Shown: positions 46,482 to 59,203 of the stretch, one piece after another
How positions within the stretch are numbered: the stretch's first letter is position 1
Layout: every line of letters begins with the position of its first letter
DNA from: an uncultured Nitrososphaerota archaeon
GTDB lineage: Archaea > Thermoproteota > EX4484-205 > JAAOZP01
Direction of reading: 5' to 3'
DNA: 64,000 nt
Assembly (NCBI GenBank): GCA_964635675.1
Contig: CAZWPT010000016.1
Coordinates: 18,522 to 82,521 of the forward strand
The notes under the pieces: generated by a model
Told to the model about the DNA's origin: nothing
Seen by the model: the letters and a program-made list of their open reading frames with translations, nothing else
Database searches by the model: none
Translations under genes and position numbers: made by a program

Positions 46482-46973
46482 GTGAGATGGAACAAGTCGA
46501 TATGGCTAACAGATGGTGAAGGAGAAACCTACAGCAAAATTAATATTATTCGGAAAACCTCCCGCGGCATGAGCCATGAAGTAATAGAGGTCTCGACAAA
46601 AACAAGGCAACAGCTTGTGGAAGTCACTTCAGCCATAAGGGAGCTGGTTAGAAGGAGCGGTGTGAAAAGGGGCGTCTGCTTCATCCATGTTCCGCACACA
46701 ACCGCCGGAATAACTCTGAACGAGAATGCTGACCTCAGTGTAGCCAAAGACATTCTCAACACTTTAGACCGCTTAATACCTGTGGAAGGCGATTACACCC
46801 ATTTGGAGGGTAATGCCCACGCGCATGTTAAAGCAAGCATCGTTGGACACAACGCGATCCTGTTCATAGAGAATGGGGAACTCACACTGGGAACTTGGCA
46901 GGGAGTTTTTCTATGCGAGTTCGACGGGCCCAGGAGGCGGAGGATTCTAGTAAAGATAATGGAGAATGCTTAA
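46482..46973 (+). CDS. YjbQ/UPF0047-family protein (secondary thiamine-phosphate synthase-like)
   Basis: 163 aa. The [22 protein letters not shown] and LGTWQG motifs are characteristic of YjbQ. Confidence 0.75.
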
Positions 46974-47683
46974 GGTTTGGAGCGTGCAAATAGCTCACTA
47001 TCGATGGCCAGCAATACTATTGTTAAGAAGTTAATGCATATGGCTGTTTGTATAACAGCATCGTTTGTAACCCAGGGAGAAAGGCGTGGTGTTTCAACCC
47101 TCAAGTATACTTCAGACGGTTCATCCGAGGAATTTGAAAGCTCCACCAGAACAACGCATCTTCCTTGCCCTCCCATGCTGAACCAGCCGAGATCAATCTG
47201 GTCAACCTTATCCACCCAGAGACAGCCTTTGAAAGAAACCCGTTTCAAAACGTTTCGCGTTTCACCAGTGTCGCTGATAACCGTAACCACCCCGTCGAGA
47301 CACCGTGTCCCGGGGCCGGTGATCCTCAGATGGTAAAACCCGCCCTGCTCCAAAACCAGGTCTAACTGCGTCCTTTTTTGAGTAATCGCTTGTGCGTGAA
47401 CCAGCTTCTTAAGCCCGCCGAACTCGGAGCAGAAAGCATAGGCGGATAACCCTAGGCCCAATAGAGACATCGCGAGCACCAGGGGTAGAAGCTTTCTCTT
47501 CAAGTTGCTTGCTTTGAAACCAGATTGGGGTTTTTCAAGGCTCGGGGACTGGGAAAAAGTAGTATAAATCATGAGTATGATGAGCATAACCACGGGTAGA
47601 CTAGCGCCATCCTCAAGCAGAGATATGACTATCGAGAGAGTGGTAAGGTAGATGGTAGCAGGGTTGACACTGTCCCCTGACAT
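46970..47683 (-). CDS. hypothetical membrane/secreted protein
   Basis: 237 aa with an N-terminal TM, a second TM and a C-terminal TM. No recognisable family. Confidence 0.35.
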
Positions 47684-47692
47684 TTTTAGAGC

Positions 47693-47929
47693 CTAGAGCA
47701 TAAGCTCAAGGGTTGCGCCCAGGGTGAACATCGTCAGGAAGACGCCTAGAAGCCTGAGATCCAGGTAGGCTGGGCCCAGCCATGTAGAAGTCAGAGTCCA
47801 GTTTTCCCCCTCGCCGTAAATCATATGGATACCCAGGAAATCCTTCCTAAGACCGAGGCTGATTGTGCCCTTGGCATACCCTAGAATCGGATCGTCTACT
47901 AAGAGCAGGATGTGCCTCAGCACCTGCAC
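47693..47929 (-). CDS. small hypothetical protein with a C-terminal TM
   Basis: 78 aa. It lies between two membrane-protein genes on the same strand. Confidence 0.25.
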   Translation of the reverse strand: MQVLRHILLLVDDPILGYAKGTISLGLRKDFLGIHMIYGEGENWTLTSTWLGPAYLDLRLLGVFLTMFTLGATLELML

Positions 47930-48013: not shown

Positions 48014-49018
48014 TCAGAGATCCGTGTAGTCGAGCACTAAGGGGAGCCCGGGTAAGGCCGGTATTCTAGTTAGGCTGCTCGCCATCCTCCAGGCGTCTAT
48101 GCTCCACCTGCGCTGAGAAGGGGTTTCCGAACCCTTATCCTTTATTGAGAAGGCTTTCACGAGCATTGGTGAGGATGCTATGAGTGATGAGACTATTCCG
48201 CCTAAGAGGCCCAGCGGATTCAGAAAGACTGTTGCTAAAAGCCCGGTCAGCAAGCCTACTGCGACGATGGCTGCGGAGGCGGTTAGCATTGTTGCCCGTG
48301 ACCTTGTGCTCAACGGGTACTCGACGAATAGGACCCTGCCCCCGGACGCGTCTAGGAGAACCCTGTGCGGCTTACCCTTGTAGACGTACTCCATTAGCCA
48401 GAATGGGTAGTGGACGAGCCCAAGGTAGTTGACTTCAACGTTCTCAAGCCTCTTCGAGCCTCCGCAGCTCCTGCTAGCCTCAGCCATAGCCTGACCAGAT
48501 ATTAACCGGTATGCGGCGTTGTAGGCTTCCTCGTAGCTCAAGGTAGGCATGTAGAACCTGCTCCTCTGGGCTTGACCAGGGTTGAAGAAGCTTCTCCCCC
48601 TCACCGAGAACGAGAGTTCCTTGGCGTAGCTGTCGAGCCAGGTGCCTGTGTAAGCTGCCAGAATAGGCGTGTTCCGGGTCTCAAGGTAGCTGGCCTGCTT
48701 ACCGCCATAGGAGCAGGAGGAGTATGCCTTGCAGCTGAAAACATGGTAGGGAACGTTGTAGAGCTCGGCTTTGCGAAGATTAGCCTCAGCGTTGAAATCA
48801 TCCGGGACGCCGTACCTCCTGGTTATGAACTGCATTGCTTTACGCCAGGCTGACGGGCTCTCCACGTAGGCTGGGAACATGTAGTAGGTCCAGGTCTTCC
48901 CGGTTGAAAGCTCGAAGGTGTGGCCGCAGTAGGGGCAGACGATTATTGAGGCTGATTGCGGCGCGTTTATAGAAGCGTTGCAGTTTAGGCACGTGACTGT
49001 CTTCAGACTCATTTCCAC
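48014..49018 (-). CDS. zinc-ribbon membrane protein of unknown function (paralog A)
   Basis: 334 aa with an N-terminal CxxC-x17-CxxC ribbon (CLNCN...CPYCG), a roughly 200-aa soluble domain, a YxYKGK motif, and 2 C-terminal TM helices. Confidence 0.5.
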   Translation of the reverse strand: MEMSLKTVTCLNCNASINAPQSASIIVCPYCGHTFELSTGKTWTYYMFPAYVESPSAWRKAMQFITRRYGVPDDFNAEANLRKAELYNVPYHVFSCKAYSSCSYGGKQASYLETRNTPILAAYTGTWLDSYAKELSFSVRGRSFFNPGQAQRSRFYMPTLSYEEAYNAAYRLISGQAMAEASRSCGGSKRLENVEVNYLGLVHYPFWLMEYVYKGKPHRVLLDASGGRVLFVEYPLSTRSRATMLTASAAIVAVGLLTGLLATVFLNPLGLLGGIVSSLIASSPMLVKAFSIKDKGSETPSQRRWSIDAWRMASSLTRIPALPGLPLVLDYTDL

Positions 49019-49971
49019 CTTTCCTCCCTAACGTCGCTAACAGCCCTGCTCGCCAGGAGGGCTCCGGCTGCTGAAACAAGTATGAAGCCGAGTACTGGAA
49101 ACCATTCTCTGAAAGATGTTAAGAGGGCCAGTATGAAGGCGCCTGCCGCTACTGACAGGGTGCTTCCGAGTATGTACAGTATTCTCTGGCCTAGGAAGAC
49201 TGGTTCCGAAACCCTTAGGAATTGAAGGGTGTAGCCTGAGACGCTTGCCCTATACATTCCACCCTTATACTTGTATACTAGGCTCCAAATCGGGGCCAGC
49301 AGTATCCAGAGCGAGTTCACCCTGGCCTCGCAGGAATAGTAGTAGAAGCCGTCTAAGCCGTTGGAGGAGCGTGTGCTTTCCCTCAGCTCGTCCTCAACCA
49401 TGTCCTTAAGCTCGTCCTCAGCCTCCTCGGGGAGAAGCTCAGCGTTTAAAACCTGGAGCCCAACGTTCCTCCAGTCTATCGCAGCCAGGGGTTGAGGGTC
49501 TTTAGCGGACTTCGCCTGGCTCACAAGCTCCTCCAAGCCGTACTCGGCAGCCTCCCTCCTCGCCGTGAAGGCGAGCCTCATCGAAGTGTTGAAAGACCCT
49601 TTCTTCGTCACGGTCTTGGTGACGTATGATTTACCCCTTTTCTCAGTAACCCTCCGGAAGCCGGACCACTCGCCGACTGCGGAAACATCCCCCATGAGAA
49701 TCGGCACGTAGAAGCCCTGAGCCTCGACAAGCTCAATGTCGCTGTAGACCCTGCTCATATCTGGGTCGCTCCTCATCCTGCTCCAGAAGGCGTTCACCAC
49801 CTCGTCCCTTGTCCGAGTCGGCAGTATGAATATTTCAAACCTACCTGTGGAGAACCAGTTGACCGTCCCACAGTATTCGCACACGCACACTATTGTCTCA
49901 GGAGTGTAATTCAAGGGAGCACCGCAGTTTGAGCATTTGAAGACCTTTTCAGATATGGTTGACTCTGTCAA
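49009..49971 (-). CDS. zinc-ribbon membrane protein of unknown function (paralog B)
   Basis: 320 aa with an N-terminal ribbon (CSNCG...CEYCG), a YKYKGGMYRASVSG motif and 2-3 C-terminal TM helices. It overlaps paralog A by 10 nt and the upstream gene by 4 nt. Confidence 0.5.
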   Translation of the reverse strand: MTESTISEKVFKCSNCGAPLNYTPETIVCVCEYCGTVNWFSTGRFEIFILPTRTRDEVVNAFWSRMRSDPDMSRVYSDIELVEAQGFYVPILMGDVSAVGEWSGFRRVTEKRGKSYVTKTVTKKGSFNTSMRLAFTARREAAEYGLEELVSQAKSAKDPQPLAAIDWRNVGLQVLNAELLPEEAEDELKDMVEDELRESTRSSNGLDGFYYYSCEARVNSLWILLAPIWSLVYKYKGGMYRASVSGYTLQFLRVSEPVFLGQRILYILGSTLSVAAGAFILALLTSFREWFPVLGFILVSAAGALLASRAVSDVREERWK

Positions 49972-50378
49972 CGCCTACCAATCCTTGAAACTATTACCCC
50001 GACCACGACGATTATTATGAGGGATATGCTCAGGTTAAGCGGCAGGTTTCCGGTGAGAAGCGTTAGGAAGAGTGAGAAACCAAGGCAGCACATCACTAGT
50101 CCCCAAATAAGGTAGTACTTGAAGTCGGCAGCGTGAATCGAGAAGAAAACAGTGTAGAACCCAAGCATGATGAGCGGCAGTGAAACTAGAATAAGCGGTT
50201 CACCGTAGCCTGTTGAAAACAGTATGCCGTCTATGCCTATTGAAACTAGCAGGACAGCCAGCGCGTAGCCTCCATACCCGACTTTTCTACTCATCTCATT
50301 AGCCTCAGAACCACAAGGCGAGCTTTGAATATATAACTTTTCCCTATCTTCGCCAAGGATTGAAGGGACATTGAGCAC
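49968..50378 (-). CDS. small polytopic membrane protein (4 TM)
   Basis: Four hydrophobic helices. The likely true start is the internal Met at 50294 (MSRKVGYGG...), with a TATATA box at 50329-50337. Confidence 0.4.
   Translation of the reverse strand: MLNVPSILGEDREKLYIQSSPCGSEANEMSRKVGYGGYALAVLLVSIGIDGILFSTGYGEPLILVSLPLIMLGFYTVFFSIHAADFKYYLIWGLVMCCLGFSLFLTLLTGNLPLNLSISLIIIVVVGVIVSRIGRR
50329..50337 (-). promoter_or_regulatory. TATA-like box (TTATATATT on the minus strand) upstream of the 4TM / Zn-ribbon membrane operon
   Basis: About 35-40 nt upstream of the internal Met at 50294. Confidence 0.3.
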
Positions 50379-50384
50379 CTAGCC

Positions 50385-50690
50385 TCAATTTTCCTCGTTA
50401 TGCTCACCAATTCTTCTGGGCCAAGCTCCTCGTGAGAACCTAGCGCGCGCTAATAGGACAACCCTTCCATCCCTCATGAGTTTTCCGATACGTCTAACCG
50501 CCTCCTCAGGATTAACATGTGAAAAACCGTTTTCATCCCAAGCGGCAACGCCGCCAGACCTGGTCGCCACAAAGTAGTTAGACTGAGTGAAAAACCTCTT
50601 TAACAGGAAGGTCTTCCCGGTTTTCCGACTCCCGTAAACCAGTACCCATCCTATTAGACCTCTTAATTCGTCTTCCTCCCCCTGCTTACT
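50385..50690 (-). pseudogene. degraded N-terminal fragment of an archaeal-type P-loop ATPase (PF01637-like)
   Basis: An in-frame stretch ...GWVLVYGSRKTGKTFLLKRFF... (Walker A) has no in-frame ATG/GTG/TTG upstream. An ATG sits one frame off, with an extra G in a GGG run. The reading frame stops after about 105 aa, whereas family members are 350 aa or longer. Confidence 0.4.
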
Positions 50691-50700
50691 ATGATATGAG

Positions 50701-50736
50701 GAATATTCTCCACAGAATATTCCCTTTAGAATATTC
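50701..50736. repeat. three direct copies of the 8-bp palindrome GAATATTC at exact 14-bp spacing (candidate operator array)
   Basis: GAATATTC at 50701, 50715 and 50729, with context gGAATATTCtcc / aGAATATTCcct / aGAATATTCtca. On the minus strand the array lies just downstream of a TATA-like GTTTATGA, upstream of the ATPase fragment. Confidence 0.6.
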
Positions 50737-50812: not shown

Positions 50813-51964
50813 CTATTGGAGCTTTGCACCGCAATTAAGGCAAAACTTTGAGCCCTCAGGCACCGTGGACCCGCATTTCGGACAGTTAACACTCTGAGGC
50901 TGCAACTGAGCTCCGCAGTTCATGCAGAACTTTGCGCCAGCAGGGTTCTGTGTTCCGCATTTCGGACAATTCACCGTGGCCTGCATGGGTGCACCGCAGC
51001 TCATACAGAATTTAGCTGTGCTCGGGTTCTGCGTCCCGCATTTCGGGCATGCTACTGTTCCTGCTGGAGGCGCGGCTGGTGGCTGCGCCGGCGGTGGCGG
51101 GGGTGCTTGGATGGCTGCGCCGCAGGACGGGCAGAACTTGCTTGTGGAGGGTACTTGTGCTTTGCAGCTTGGACATATGACCATTGGTGCTGCGGCAGCC
51201 TGCTGCATTAGCTGGGGCACCAGAACTATTCCTGTTCCAGCCGCCGCCCCGGGCGACTTGCTCAGGGACTCGGCGACGCTCTTAGTCGTGTCCATCGCCA
51301 TGACTTGTGTCGCAGCGCCGCCGGTCTGCTTTATCCAGAACAGCCTGTCCCTGTACTCCGGCGTGGTGTCAACACCCTCAAACTTTAGGTCTATGACGTC
51401 TACGCCGACACGCTTAAACTCCTCGTCTATCGTTGCCTTAACCTTGAACGAAACCTCCTCAAGCTTTGTGAAGACCGTCACAAGGTCGTATTTCGAGAGC
51501 TGCGTTATCAGCCTCTCGTTCATGAATCCCCGTAGGAAACTGTTTACGGATTCAGTGGTGTATGCGCTCTGCCCTCCCACGACCTCCATTACGAACGTCT
51601 TAGGATCCCCGATTTTAAACCAGAATGCCCCATAGAACTTCAGGGGTGCGAGCTCAACCGTCTGCCCGCTGGCTCCGAACAATCCTTTAAACTGCTTCGT
51701 GGAGACGAATATGACTGTGGCTTTGAAAGGCGTGGTCTCGAAGCCAGCCACCCTTGTTAACACGCCTGTGAGCAGCGGCAGGTTCATCGTTGTTAAAGTA
51801 TGTCTGCCAGGCCCGAAGACATCGTAAGCCTTGCCGTCCCTGAAGAATATTGCAGCCTCATACTCGTGGACGATCAGCTGAGCACCCCAGGTTATCTCCT
51901 CCTTCGGGTATCTCCAGACGATGTCGTCAGCGGAAGCCCCTATCCACTCTATTATCTGAGGCAT
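50813..51964 (-). CDS. SPFH/Band-7 superfamily protein (PF13421-like) with four C-terminal zinc ribbons
   Basis: 383 aa. The N-terminal IEWIG..DDIVWRYP...GAQLIVHEYEAAIFFRDGKAYDVFGPGRHTLTT matches the SPFH-like family. The C-terminus has a Pro-rich linker and 4x C-P-x-C-G...KFCxxCG. Confidence 0.7.
   Translation of the reverse strand: MPQIIEWIGASADDIVWRYPKEEITWGAQLIVHEYEAAIFFRDGKAYDVFGPGRHTLTTMNLPLLTGVLTRVAGFETTPFKATVIFVSTKQFKGLFGASGQTVELAPLKFYGAFWFKIGDPKTFVMEVVGGQSAYTTESVNSFLRGFMNERLITQLSKYDLVTVFTKLEEVSFKVKATIDEEFKRVGVDVIDLKFEGVDTTPEYRDRLFWIKQTGGAATQVMAMDTTKSVAESLSKSPGAAAGTGIVLVPQLMQQAAAAPMVICPSCKAQVPSTSKFCPSCGAAIQAPPPPPAQPPAAPPAGTVACPKCGTQNPSTAKFCMSCGAPMQATVNCPKCGTQNPAGAKFCMNCGAQLQPQSVNCPKCGSTVPEGSKFCLNCGAKLQ
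50816..51175 (-). repeat. in-frame tandem repeats encoding four zinc-ribbon modules (roughly 23-aa / 69-nt units)
   Basis: Nucleotide-level repeats (ccgcatttcggaca... three times) encode CPKCGTQNP..AKFCM.CGA..Q units at aa 264-283, 306-325, 333-352 and 361-380. Confidence 0.8.
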
Positions 51965-51966
51965 TC

Positions 51967-52503
51967 CTAGACACCTCTCTTAATGGAGACTATCTCCTCC
52001 TCTCTGGAGGAGAAGGCTGATTCAAGCTCCCTAGCCTTGGCTTCAAGCTGCTTCAAGAGATTTGGGAGAGCATCAAGGCTTCCGGCTGCAGCAGCGTTGC
52101 CAGCCTCCTCAGCTATTCTGGAGACCTCTTCACAAGCCCCTAGAAGCCTGTAGTCATACTCCATCAGCTTGTCGAGCTCAGCCTCGCGAACCTTGACGAG
52201 GTCGAAGAAGCCCGCGTAACCGTAGTCAGCATGCCCAATCTTGTTTATAACCCTGTCTAGGACCGCGGAAACCCTGTTTATATTCTTAAACAATCCAGCT
52301 GCATCCGAGTCAGCAGCCTCCCTTGAGACTGTTTTCAAATGGGACCTGGCTGCCTCAAGCTTTTTAACCATGAAATCCCTTAGAAGCTTGTCCGCTTCCC
52401 TCCTAACCTCCTTCTGCTTATACCCCCTGTAGCCGGGGAGATAGGAGGCTATCTTCTCAGCCAGTCCTCTTTTCTCCTCATACTCCTTTATGAATTCACT
52501 CAT
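51967..52503 (-). CDS. hypothetical coiled-coil protein
   Basis: 178 aa, charged and alpha-helical. It is 2 nt upstream of the SPFH gene, so it is probably co-transcribed. Confidence 0.4.
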   Translation of the reverse strand: MSEFIKEYEEKRGLAEKIASYLPGYRGYKQKEVRREADKLLRDFMVKKLEAARSHLKTVSREAADSDAAGLFKNINRVSAVLDRVINKIGHADYGYAGFFDLVKVREAELDKLMEYDYRLLGACEEVSRIAEEAGNAAAAGSLDALPNLLKQLEAKARELESAFSSREEEIVSIKRGV

Positions 52504-58194: not shown

Positions 58195-58659
58195 ATGAGG
58201 CGGAAAAGGAAGCGTAAAATGGTTTTTCCCAGAACCATGTTTGAATGCAGGGTGTGCGGGAAATGCTGCGTCGAGGATGTTAGGCGTGGTAGACGGATAG
58301 TTCTAACCAGGACTGACGCCTTAGAAATCTCGAGCGCTACTGGAATAGGTTTGAGCGAGTTTGCGGAGGAAAACAGTAGTGAAGCCTACCCGTATGCTAT
58401 TAGGCTTGTTAACGGGAGATGCTTCTTCCTTAAGCCGGACAACAAGTGTAGTATTTACCCGGTTAGACCCCTGGTGTGCAGGTTCTACCCTTTCGTAATG
58501 CAGAAGGTTGGAGAGACATACGTGTTTCACGCTGACCCTTTCTGCCCAGGGCTTGGGGAAGGCGCTTATCTTGACGAAGAATATTTCGAGAAGCTTGTCG
58601 AGCAGGCTGAGAAGCGTTTAAACAGGTCTACTGGGCTGTTCGAGGCGCGCCGCAGTTAG
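58195..58659 (+). CDS. YkgJ-family Cys-cluster protein (CxxCxxCC, UPF0153)
   Basis: 154 aa with CRVCGKCC plus downstream Cys (GRCFF, NKCSIYPVRPLVCRFYPF). It is a paralog of 42757-43278. Confidence 0.6.
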   Translation: MRRKRKRKMVFPRTMFECRVCGKCCVEDVRRGRRIVLTRTDALEISSATGIGLSEFAEENSSEAYPYAIRLVNGRCFFLKPDNKCSIYPVRPLVCRFYPFVMQKVGETYVFHADPFCPGLGEGAYLDEEYFEKLVEQAEKRLNRSTGLFEARRS

Positions 58660-59203
58660 GACACCTGGTCTCACCCTGTGGGAAAACGGTTCCACAATAC
58701 TTGCATGAAACAGTGGATAGCGCGTGCTGAACCTGGAGAGGCGGGGAAACCTGTATTTCGATGGTTTTACTCGTCGCATCAGGCCGCCCTTCTACAGCAG
58801 CAACCCCCTTCAGATTCCAGGCTACAACCCTATCTAGGCTCTTGAAAGAAGGCTGGGCTCCGGGAGGAATTAGGATTTTAAACTGGTAGCTCTGGACAAA
58901 ACCCTCGGGAACGTGCAGAGGCCCAGCCAACTGTGGTCTAGCCGAAAATATGACTGCAGAATCCCAGACCTGTTGCTCAACCTCCCTTTTAAGAGAAGCT
59001 TCGTAAACCCTCCTGGTTTTACGCACCCGCTCGACACACTCAAGCTCGCACCTTATCTCAGTGCAGTCGAACTCTTCCTGAGACTCGACCTGTACTGCTC
59101 CCTCCACGTTGTCACCAAGATAGAAGATCTGCTTCTTCAGAAGCAGAGATATGTTTACCCTGGGTGGGGTAACCTTATCCCTGAGTTTCTTAAACAGGCT
59201 CAC
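58628..59203 (-). CDS. SpoOM-like arrestin-fold protein with a C-terminal zinc ribbon
   Basis: 191 aa. The N-terminal MSLFKKLRDKV...LGDNVEGAVQVES resembles the SpoOM family start (MSFFKKL..VGIG..VDT.L...PGE.V.G.V). The C-terminus is CKYCG...CPNCG. Confidence 0.5.
   Translation of the reverse strand: MSLFKKLRDKVTPPRVNISLLLKKQIFYLGDNVEGAVQVESQEEFDCTEIRCELECVERVRKTRRVYEASLKREVEQQVWDSAVIFSARPQLAGPLHVPEGFVQSYQFKILIPPGAQPSFKSLDRVVAWNLKGVAAVEGRPDATSKTIEIQVSPPLQVQHALSTVSCKYCGTVFPQGETRCPNCGAPRTAQ

Follow-up and report, generated by a model that had tools for sequence, protein, structure and literature searches.

The 64,000-nucleotide stretch of DNA analyzed here (the window; contig CAZWPT010000016.1 of GenBank assembly GCA_964635675.1, positions 18,522 to 82,521 of the forward strand) comes from an uncultured Nitrososphaerota archaeon and encodes, on its minus strand, an SPFH protein with four C-terminal zinc ribbons. 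The gene for a helical protein, referred to below as the partner, ends 2 nt upstream of the SPFH start. An original prediction, made from the DNA sequence alone, had placed the SPFH gene in an operon with a helical protein gene, and the analysis supports this placement. Both genes, and the elements of the SPFH protein, are listed below in window coordinates with the evidence for each.

50813 to 51964, minus strand: SPFH-ribbon protein of the YdjI/SamI type, soluble, 383 amino acids (aa), four C-terminal zinc ribbons; open reading frame (ORF), Pfam, BLASTP, and hydropathy
51356 to 51919, minus strand: SPFH domain, aa 16-203; PF13421 (Band_7_1), E = 1.4e-32, and PF01145 (Band_7), E = 2.5e-20
51179 to 51259, minus strand: Gly/Ala/Met/Gln-rich, borderline-hydrophobic segment (...GTGIVLVPQLMQQAAAAPMV), aa ~236-262, between the SPFH domain and ribbon 1; alignment and hydropathy
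51122 to 51175, minus strand: zinc ribbon 1, aa 264-281; Pfam and motif
51059 to 51106, minus strand: Pro-rich linker APPPPPAQPPAAPPAG, aa 287-302, between ribbons 1 and 2; sequence
50996 to 51049, minus strand: zinc ribbon 2, aa 306-323; Pfam, motif, and ribbon-by-ribbon comparison
50915 to 50968, minus strand: zinc ribbon 3, aa 333-350, missing in the three-ribbon relatives L011 and P0003; motif and ribbon-by-ribbon comparison
50831 to 50884, minus strand: zinc ribbon 4, aa 361-378, missing in the three-ribbon relatives P0002, L012, and L013; motif and ribbon-by-ribbon comparison
51967 to 52503, minus strand: partner protein, 178 aa, soluble, predicted four-helix bundle; ORF, AF2 model, and alignment

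The predicted PF13421-type SPFH domain at the N terminus was confirmed by Pfam, which placed Band_7_1 at residues 16 to 203 with 113.5 bits, against a gathering threshold of 24; with this model, a B. subtilis-type YdjI reaches 146.9 bits. The YdjI sequence was taken from a B. subtilis-type pspA-ydjGHI locus, obtained via a published primer sequence and used for all comparisons with YdjG, YdjH, YdjI, and PspA; Pfam assigns its YdjI to PF13421 with a single ribbon and finds a TPM domain in its YdjH. BLASTP aligned the SPFH protein with YdjI along its full length, residues 1 to 327 against residues 8 to 322 (E = 8e-17, 20% identity). No transmembrane (TM) segment was found in a simple hydropathy test, where the value never rose above 1.6 and reached a maximum of 1.53 at residue 246; the solubility of both the SPFH protein and the partner was judged in this way, from a 19-residue Kyte-Doolittle window and not from a dedicated TM predictor. 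A search of the PDB by sequence returned a single match, DZANK1, which was made through the ribbons.

These comparisons show that the protein is a soluble PF13421-type SPFH protein of the family of B. subtilis YdjI/SamI. The family, which we take to be COG4260 ([quoted passage not shown]), has a layout that the window protein keeps: an SPFH domain, a low-complexity linker, and a C-terminal ribbon of PF13240/PF13248 type, the last present four times rather than the usual one to three. It differs from YdjI/SamI itself in having four ribbons instead of one, in sequence (~20% identity), and in its archaeal host. With stomatin/NfeD, the flotillins FloT and FloA, and HflK/C, it shares the SPFH fold, to which the PF01145 match attests, and a presumed membrane role; unlike them, it has neither an N-terminal TM segment or hairpin nor an NfeD partner, none being present among the precomputed Pfam matches in the neighborhood of the gene, and its tail is made of low-complexity sequence and ribbons, with no long heptad pattern by eye (no coiled-coil predictor was run).

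No part of the protein is more hydrophobic than the Gly/Ala/Met/Gln-rich segment, where hydropathy peaks at 1.53, just below a TM threshold. Similar stretches are conserved in archaeal and bacterial orthologues, the bacterial counterpart being GAGLGFMIPGMMQQAMQ, and the segment may be an element for membrane interaction or partner binding.

The four ribbon modules of the original prediction are present in the tail as CxxC-x10-CxxC units at residues 264 to 281, 306 to 323, 333 to 350, and 361 to 378; Pfam reports Zn_Ribbon_1 four times and DZR three times, and all 16 cysteines of the array are intact. The linker described as joining the SPFH domain to the ribbons is misplaced: the Pro-rich APPPPPAQPPAAPPAG separates ribbon 1 from ribbon 2. 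The last three ribbons had been called near-identical at the DNA level and ascribed to recent duplication within the gene, and neither statement holds. Pairwise, ribbons 2 to 4 share 54 to 69% of their DNA sequence and 33 to 50% of third codon positions, and Tandem Repeats Finder detected no repeat in the gene even at a score of 30. In P0001 and L009, two sister lineages, each ribbon has a positional orthologue at 84 to 100% amino acid identity, while paralogous ribbons are 48 to 76% identical; the comparison argues that the array is old and not the product of recent duplication. Close relatives with three ribbons retain either ribbons 1, 2, and 3 (P0002, L012, and L013) or ribbons 1, 2, and 4 (L011 and P0003), so that, by this sequence evidence, single units have been gained or lost from an old array.

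The repeat count, which was to be checked against assembly error, was upheld by three independent assemblies (ENA ERZ27245602, Logan SRR5216256, and JGI 3300022548) that encode the identical 383-aa four-ribbon protein. That the four ribbons might be an assembly artefact, or else a very recent and possibly neutral duplication without functional meaning, is a reading prompted by the miscounting of repeated modules to which metagenome assemblies may be prone, and by the variation in copy number among close relatives. We consider it highly improbable. The agreement of the three assemblies means that the copy number is not an artefact, and units only 54 to 69% identical in DNA are beyond collapse or expansion by an assembler, so that this part of the doubt is essentially refuted; the intact cysteines, and the retention of each unit with its positional orthologue in lineages of 91 to 94% identity, speak against the rest.

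Homologue surveys, which rest on the best 120 to 150 matches per search, place the array at the upper end of a range. Among the top 120 SPFH homologues, all from Thermoproteota/Bathyarchaeia and with no annotation beyond "SPFH domain-containing protein" or "membrane protease subunit (stomatin/prohibitin family)," two ribbons occur in 67, three in 52, and four in one, a 94%-identical orthologue. The top matches listed share 54 to 94% identity with the window protein, the same architecture, and a partner gene upstream; they differ in carrying mostly two ribbons, or three, with four confined to the window's own clade. A second count, of 67 complete SPFH genes adjoining a partner gene in species-level genomes, gave no ribbon in 2, one in 1, two in 58, three in 5, and four in 1, the last again from the window's clade (L009). 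Orthologues do not routinely carry four ribbons. An exhaustive search of 50%-identity cluster representatives yielded more distant PF13421 proteins, confirmed by Pfam, with four (P0309, P0310, P0317, P0340, and P0364) or five (P0349, P0386, and P0379). Four ribbons were rightly called unusual in that they exceed the orthologue norm of two or three, but the claim was overstated, given at least eight PF13421 representatives elsewhere with four or five. The window protein therefore sits in the upper tail, rare among orthologues and not unprecedented: the ribbon count is an ordinary copy-number variant, and two is the archaeal norm.

Two orthologues from Anaerolineae, each in a partner-SPFH pair (L060, 6573-7625, and L086, 6544-7602), lack ribbons and end in a conserved helical tail (..IQALLDNLDT.LA.G.IS...YN.L.AKWEAKLK.L). 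Identification of these tails as SHOCT domains was considered and dropped for weak support, one tail matching SHOCT at an E value of 0.0024, which fails the cut-off, and both matching GvpG at ~0.001-0.002. The search of representatives also returned non-SPFH proteins with 8 to 19 tandem DZR-type ribbons: P0292 (1317 aa), P0294 (675 aa), P0346 (652 aa), and P0345 (767 aa). In the window itself, a 191-aa protein at 58628-59203 on the minus strand, with a precomputed Pfam match to Arrestin_N, is a further soluble domain of this genome with a ribbon of similar kind at its C terminus (CKYCG...CPNCGA).

Zinc ribbons often bind nucleic acids, an idea that has been raised for DZR and YdjG (PMC3581485, PMC9239133), and loss of SamI changes global transcription in B. 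subtilis (bioRxiv 10.64898/2026.02.06.704340). The array might accordingly bind nucleic acid or sequester a regulator, and the genes around it would then form a membrane-tethered signaling or transcription-control device rather than a structural scaffold; the two conserved lysines in each ribbon (CPKCG and xKFC) would suit such a role. Each ribbon is, however, a minimal pair of knuckles, 18 residues long, that has a net charge of ~+2 and lacks any further basic surface, and a tail that varies from zero to five ribbons, or is replaced by helices, is easier to understand as a tether than as a reader of specific sequences. No helix-turn-helix or other DNA-binding protein is conserved in the gene module described below. 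We regard this explanation as quite unlikely.

The partner was correctly sized at 178 aa and positioned 2 nt upstream by the original prediction; its description as a coiled coil needs amending, for the AF2 model (pLDDT 80, pTM 0.72) is a bundle of four long helices and not a simple coiled coil. Hydropathy revealed no hydrophobic segment. Two motifs are near-invariant across the family alignment: PGYxGYKxKExRRExDKxxR (aa 23-42) and A(S/D)YGYAGFFD (aa 92-101). No Pfam family matched the protein, and searches of the PDB with its sequence and profile returned coiled-coil noise only. The closest named family was NCBIfam NF047596, "LIMLP_15305 family," named after a Leptospira interrogans locus, which aligned over the full model length (aa 3-169 against positions 6-171 of 175; E = 5.9e-15). 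The score of 55.6 bits is far under the equivalog cut-off of 210 bits, which makes the partner a remote homologue rather than an equivalog. NF047596 has no recorded function, and the literature on LIMLP_15305 offered nothing on function, the single paper naming the locus listing it as the neighbor of a small RNA. Every one of the 118 homologues collected is annotated as hypothetical; they come from Thermoproteota, Brockarchaeota, Nitrososphaeria, and Chloroflexi, and a few gave weak, nonsignificant Pfam matches to TelA and XpaC-like families (E ~0.03-0.04). One homologue of 219 aa (P0172) begins with a PF13240 zinc ribbon, of the same type as those in the SPFH tail, and this fusion suggests that ribbon and partner work in the same complex.

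When one genome per species was scanned, at least 452 loci encoding the partner came to light, of which 80 were kept for analysis of context. A PF13421-like ORF starts downstream of the partner gene on the same strand, at -100 to +200 nt, in 77 of the 80, and two more loci run off their contigs. The gap between the two genes has a median of 1 nt and is at most 10 nt in 69 loci, and spacing or overlap this close to zero suggests translational coupling. Of the 67 loci in which the SPFH gene is complete, a gene for a YdjG-like protein is present in 44, a small ORF with three or four TM segments in 40, and both in 35. Most Bathyarchaeia loci carry a YdjG-like gene of ~247 aa directly upstream of the partner gene and a four-TM ORF of ~112 aa directly downstream of the SPFH gene. 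The genes thus form a module of up to four: the helical partner, the SPFH-ribbon protein, a small four-TM protein, and one or two YdjG homologues. It is distributed in archaea over Thermoproteota, Bathyarchaeia, Nitrososphaeria, Hadarchaeota, and Asgard and in bacteria over Anaerolineae, Thermoleophilia, and Actinomycetes. The original account of the context had recognized the helical partner gene and missed the YdjG homologues, the four-TM protein, and the near-obligate pairing of partner and PF13421 genes. No description of the partner-SPFH-YdjG-like association was found in the searchable literature; surveys of phage shock protein (PSP) systems would miss the module because they are anchored on PspA or PspC.

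An association of the partner with PspA or flotillins had also been suggested. Homology to PspA is unsupported: the partner family alignment matched B. subtilis-type PspA with an hhalign probability of 0.1%, and neither PspA_IM30 nor Snf7 was matched in Pfam by any of 55 family members, even at an E value of up to 1. The partner was rejected as a member of the PspA/ESCRT-III superfamily on these grounds, and comparison with YdjH was equally negative (hhalign probability 0.13%). A functional analogue is a separate proposition. The partner might be the effector of the module, its bundle opening to polymerize on, or insert into, damaged membrane to which the SPFH protein recruits it. Its near-invariable pairing with the SPFH gene, usually across a gap of 10 nt or less, is in keeping with this idea, as is its place as the nonmembrane companion of the SPFH protein in a module without PspA, a protein that the B. 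subtilis operon does encode and that YdjI there binds, recruits, and localizes (PMC8581546). The failed matches to PspA and Snf7 count against the idea, and no amphipathic N-terminal helix was confidently predicted by AF2. On balance, we think it unlikely that the LIMLP_15305-like protein is an unrecognized membrane-repair or -remodeling effector in a PspA/ESCRT-III role, delivered by the SPFH protein with a recruitment strength set by ribbon valency.

In the window, the remaining genes of the module lie downstream of the SPFH gene.

49968 to 50294, minus strand: small membrane protein, 108 aa from the gene callers' ATG, four hydrophobic segments; ORF and hydropathy
49009 to 49971, minus strand: YdjG-like protein 1, 320 aa, with an N-terminal C4 ribbon (C13, C16, C31, and C34), two alpha/beta units, and a C-terminal two-TM hairpin; AF2 (pLDDT 88) and alignment
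48014 to 49018, minus strand: YdjG-like protein 2, 334 aa, a diverged paralogue of the same architecture; BLASTP and hydropathy

In 38 Bathyarchaeia loci, a four-TM ORF directly follows the SPFH gene, and the small membrane protein matches the profile of these ORFs (hhalign probability 98.1%, E = 9.5e-14). The family alignment of the 320-aa protein matched B. subtilis-type YdjG over 300 columns (hhalign probability 99.6%, E = 6.4e-24), covering the zinc ribbon, the cytoplasmic alpha/beta domain (related to YpeB/NTF2 by Ravi et al.; PMC11237479), and the C-terminal anchor. The 334-aa protein is related to it over ~320 aa (BLASTP, E = 1e-8, 23% identity), and its family matches the YdjG-like hidden Markov model in orthologous loci. 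The window family has a single N-terminal ribbon where YdjG/SamG has two (as does P0270, a distant member of the window family), a pair of TM helices where YdjG/SamG has one, and two paralogues in the window's clade.

Between the SPFH gene and the four-TM gene, at 50451-50678 on the minus strand, lies the remnant of an AAA_14-type ATPase gene, ~76 codons long and 70% identical to residues 13 to 88, Walker A motif GRRKTGKT included, of a 426-aa protein. The 426-aa ATPase is intact in the same position in the related loci L009 and L013 and is not conserved beyond the window's clade. With only ~76 codons left, the gene has decayed or been deleted in the window. Just upstream of the remnant, ~75-110 nt past the SPFH stop (50701-50736), the palindrome GAATATTC occurs three times with an exact spacing of 14 bp; the octamer has one further occurrence in the 64 kb, where ~1 is expected by chance. 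The array looks like an operator or a set of transcription factor sites. Directly after the YdjG-like pair, at 46970-47929 on the minus strand, are two ORFs on the same strand, of 78 aa with one hydrophobic segment and of 237 aa with three; neither has a Pfam match, and both appear in the same order in an independent assembly (L001).

The decayed ATPase gene inside the cluster, together with the occurrence of SPFH-like and zinc-ribbon proteins in some conflict systems, raises the question of whether the module is antiphage defense or mobile-element cargo. Its setting suggests otherwise: none of the five module proteins matched a PADLOC model, the genes lie among housekeeping genes in conserved synteny, the distribution looks vertical within Bathyarchaeia, and the ATPase is not kept outside the window's clade. 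The chance that this explanation is right is very small.

The closest characterized system is the pspA-ydjGHI (pspA-samGHI) operon of B. subtilis, where YdjI is a soluble protein that requires YdjG and YdjH for access to the membrane (PMC8581546, PMC11237479) and SamGHI has PspA-independent roles (bioRxiv 10.64898/2026.02.06.704340). As in that operon, the window's SPFH gene is linked to genes for YdjG-family zinc-ribbon membrane proteins. Unlike it, the window has no gene for PspA or for a TPM-domain YdjH within 10 kb, and it has a four-helix partner directly upstream and a small four-TM protein; the search for PspA_IM30, Snf7, and TPM_phosphatase covered precomputed Pfam matches within 10 kb on either side, and for PspA_IM30 and Snf7 the rest of the genome was not searched. 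We read the module, by these gene comparisons, as a modified form of the YdjG/YdjI portion of pspA-ydjGHI from which PspA and the TPM protein are absent nearby.

The interpretation that we favor, with moderate confidence, is by analogy with B. subtilis a membrane-stress module built on a YdjI-type SPFH scaffold, with the partner, a receptor of YdjG-like and four-TM proteins, and a ribbon tether. The YdjG-like and four-TM proteins would form a receptor in the membrane. The SPFH protein would assemble as a scaffold on the cytoplasmic face together with its obligate helical partner, which may act as a co-subunit, client, or effector of the scaffold. The ribbons, carried on flexible Pro/Ala/Gln linkers, would serve as a multivalent tether, and a larger number of them could give higher avidity or a longer reach toward the receptor or the membrane surface. 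That the tail is a modular tether is suggested by the range of zero to five ribbons, by the helical tail that replaces them in Anaerolineae, and by the ribbon carried on the partner homologue P0172; we infer that ribbon number is an evolutionarily adjustable parameter and not a new function. The module as a whole is probably a membrane-integrity or stress system in which the YdjG-YdjI pair would be the ancient core and PspA a bacterial addition.

Several observations weigh against this scheme. Its functional steps all rest on analogy across ~20% sequence identity, and the fold of the partner matches generic helical bundles only. A YdjG-like gene within 6 kb was not seen in about a third of the partner-SPFH loci. 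In the window, cotranscription of the YdjG-like genes with the SPFH gene is uncertain because they lie ~0.84 kb downstream of it, past the decayed ATPase gene and the four-TM gene. The proposal that ribbon number follows the count of YdjG-like paralogues was rejected, as there was no correlation across loci.

Taken alone, the four ribbons matter little; they show the YdjI-type tail as a tether of adjustable valency, with zero to five ribbons or a helical tail. Of wider consequence is the recurrence, across many archaeal and some bacterial phyla, of a soluble SPFH protein with a YdjG homologue, a pair studied so far only in Bacillus as accessories of PspA. Recurrence without PspA or the TPM protein suggests that the YdjG-YdjI pair is an old core, which fits the report of PspA-independent SamGHI functions. 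The SPFH and YdjG-like genes are tightly paired with an uncharacterized helical family, present at no fewer than 452 species-level genome loci, and this family is a concrete candidate for the partner or effector that is missing in archaea, whose envelope-stress systems are little understood. If the partner does prove to be an effector, the module would be an ancient PspA-independent envelope-stress system in many archaea and some bacteria. The association of partner, SPFH protein, and YdjG-like protein is a reasonable lead for an archaeal PspA-independent membrane-stress system.

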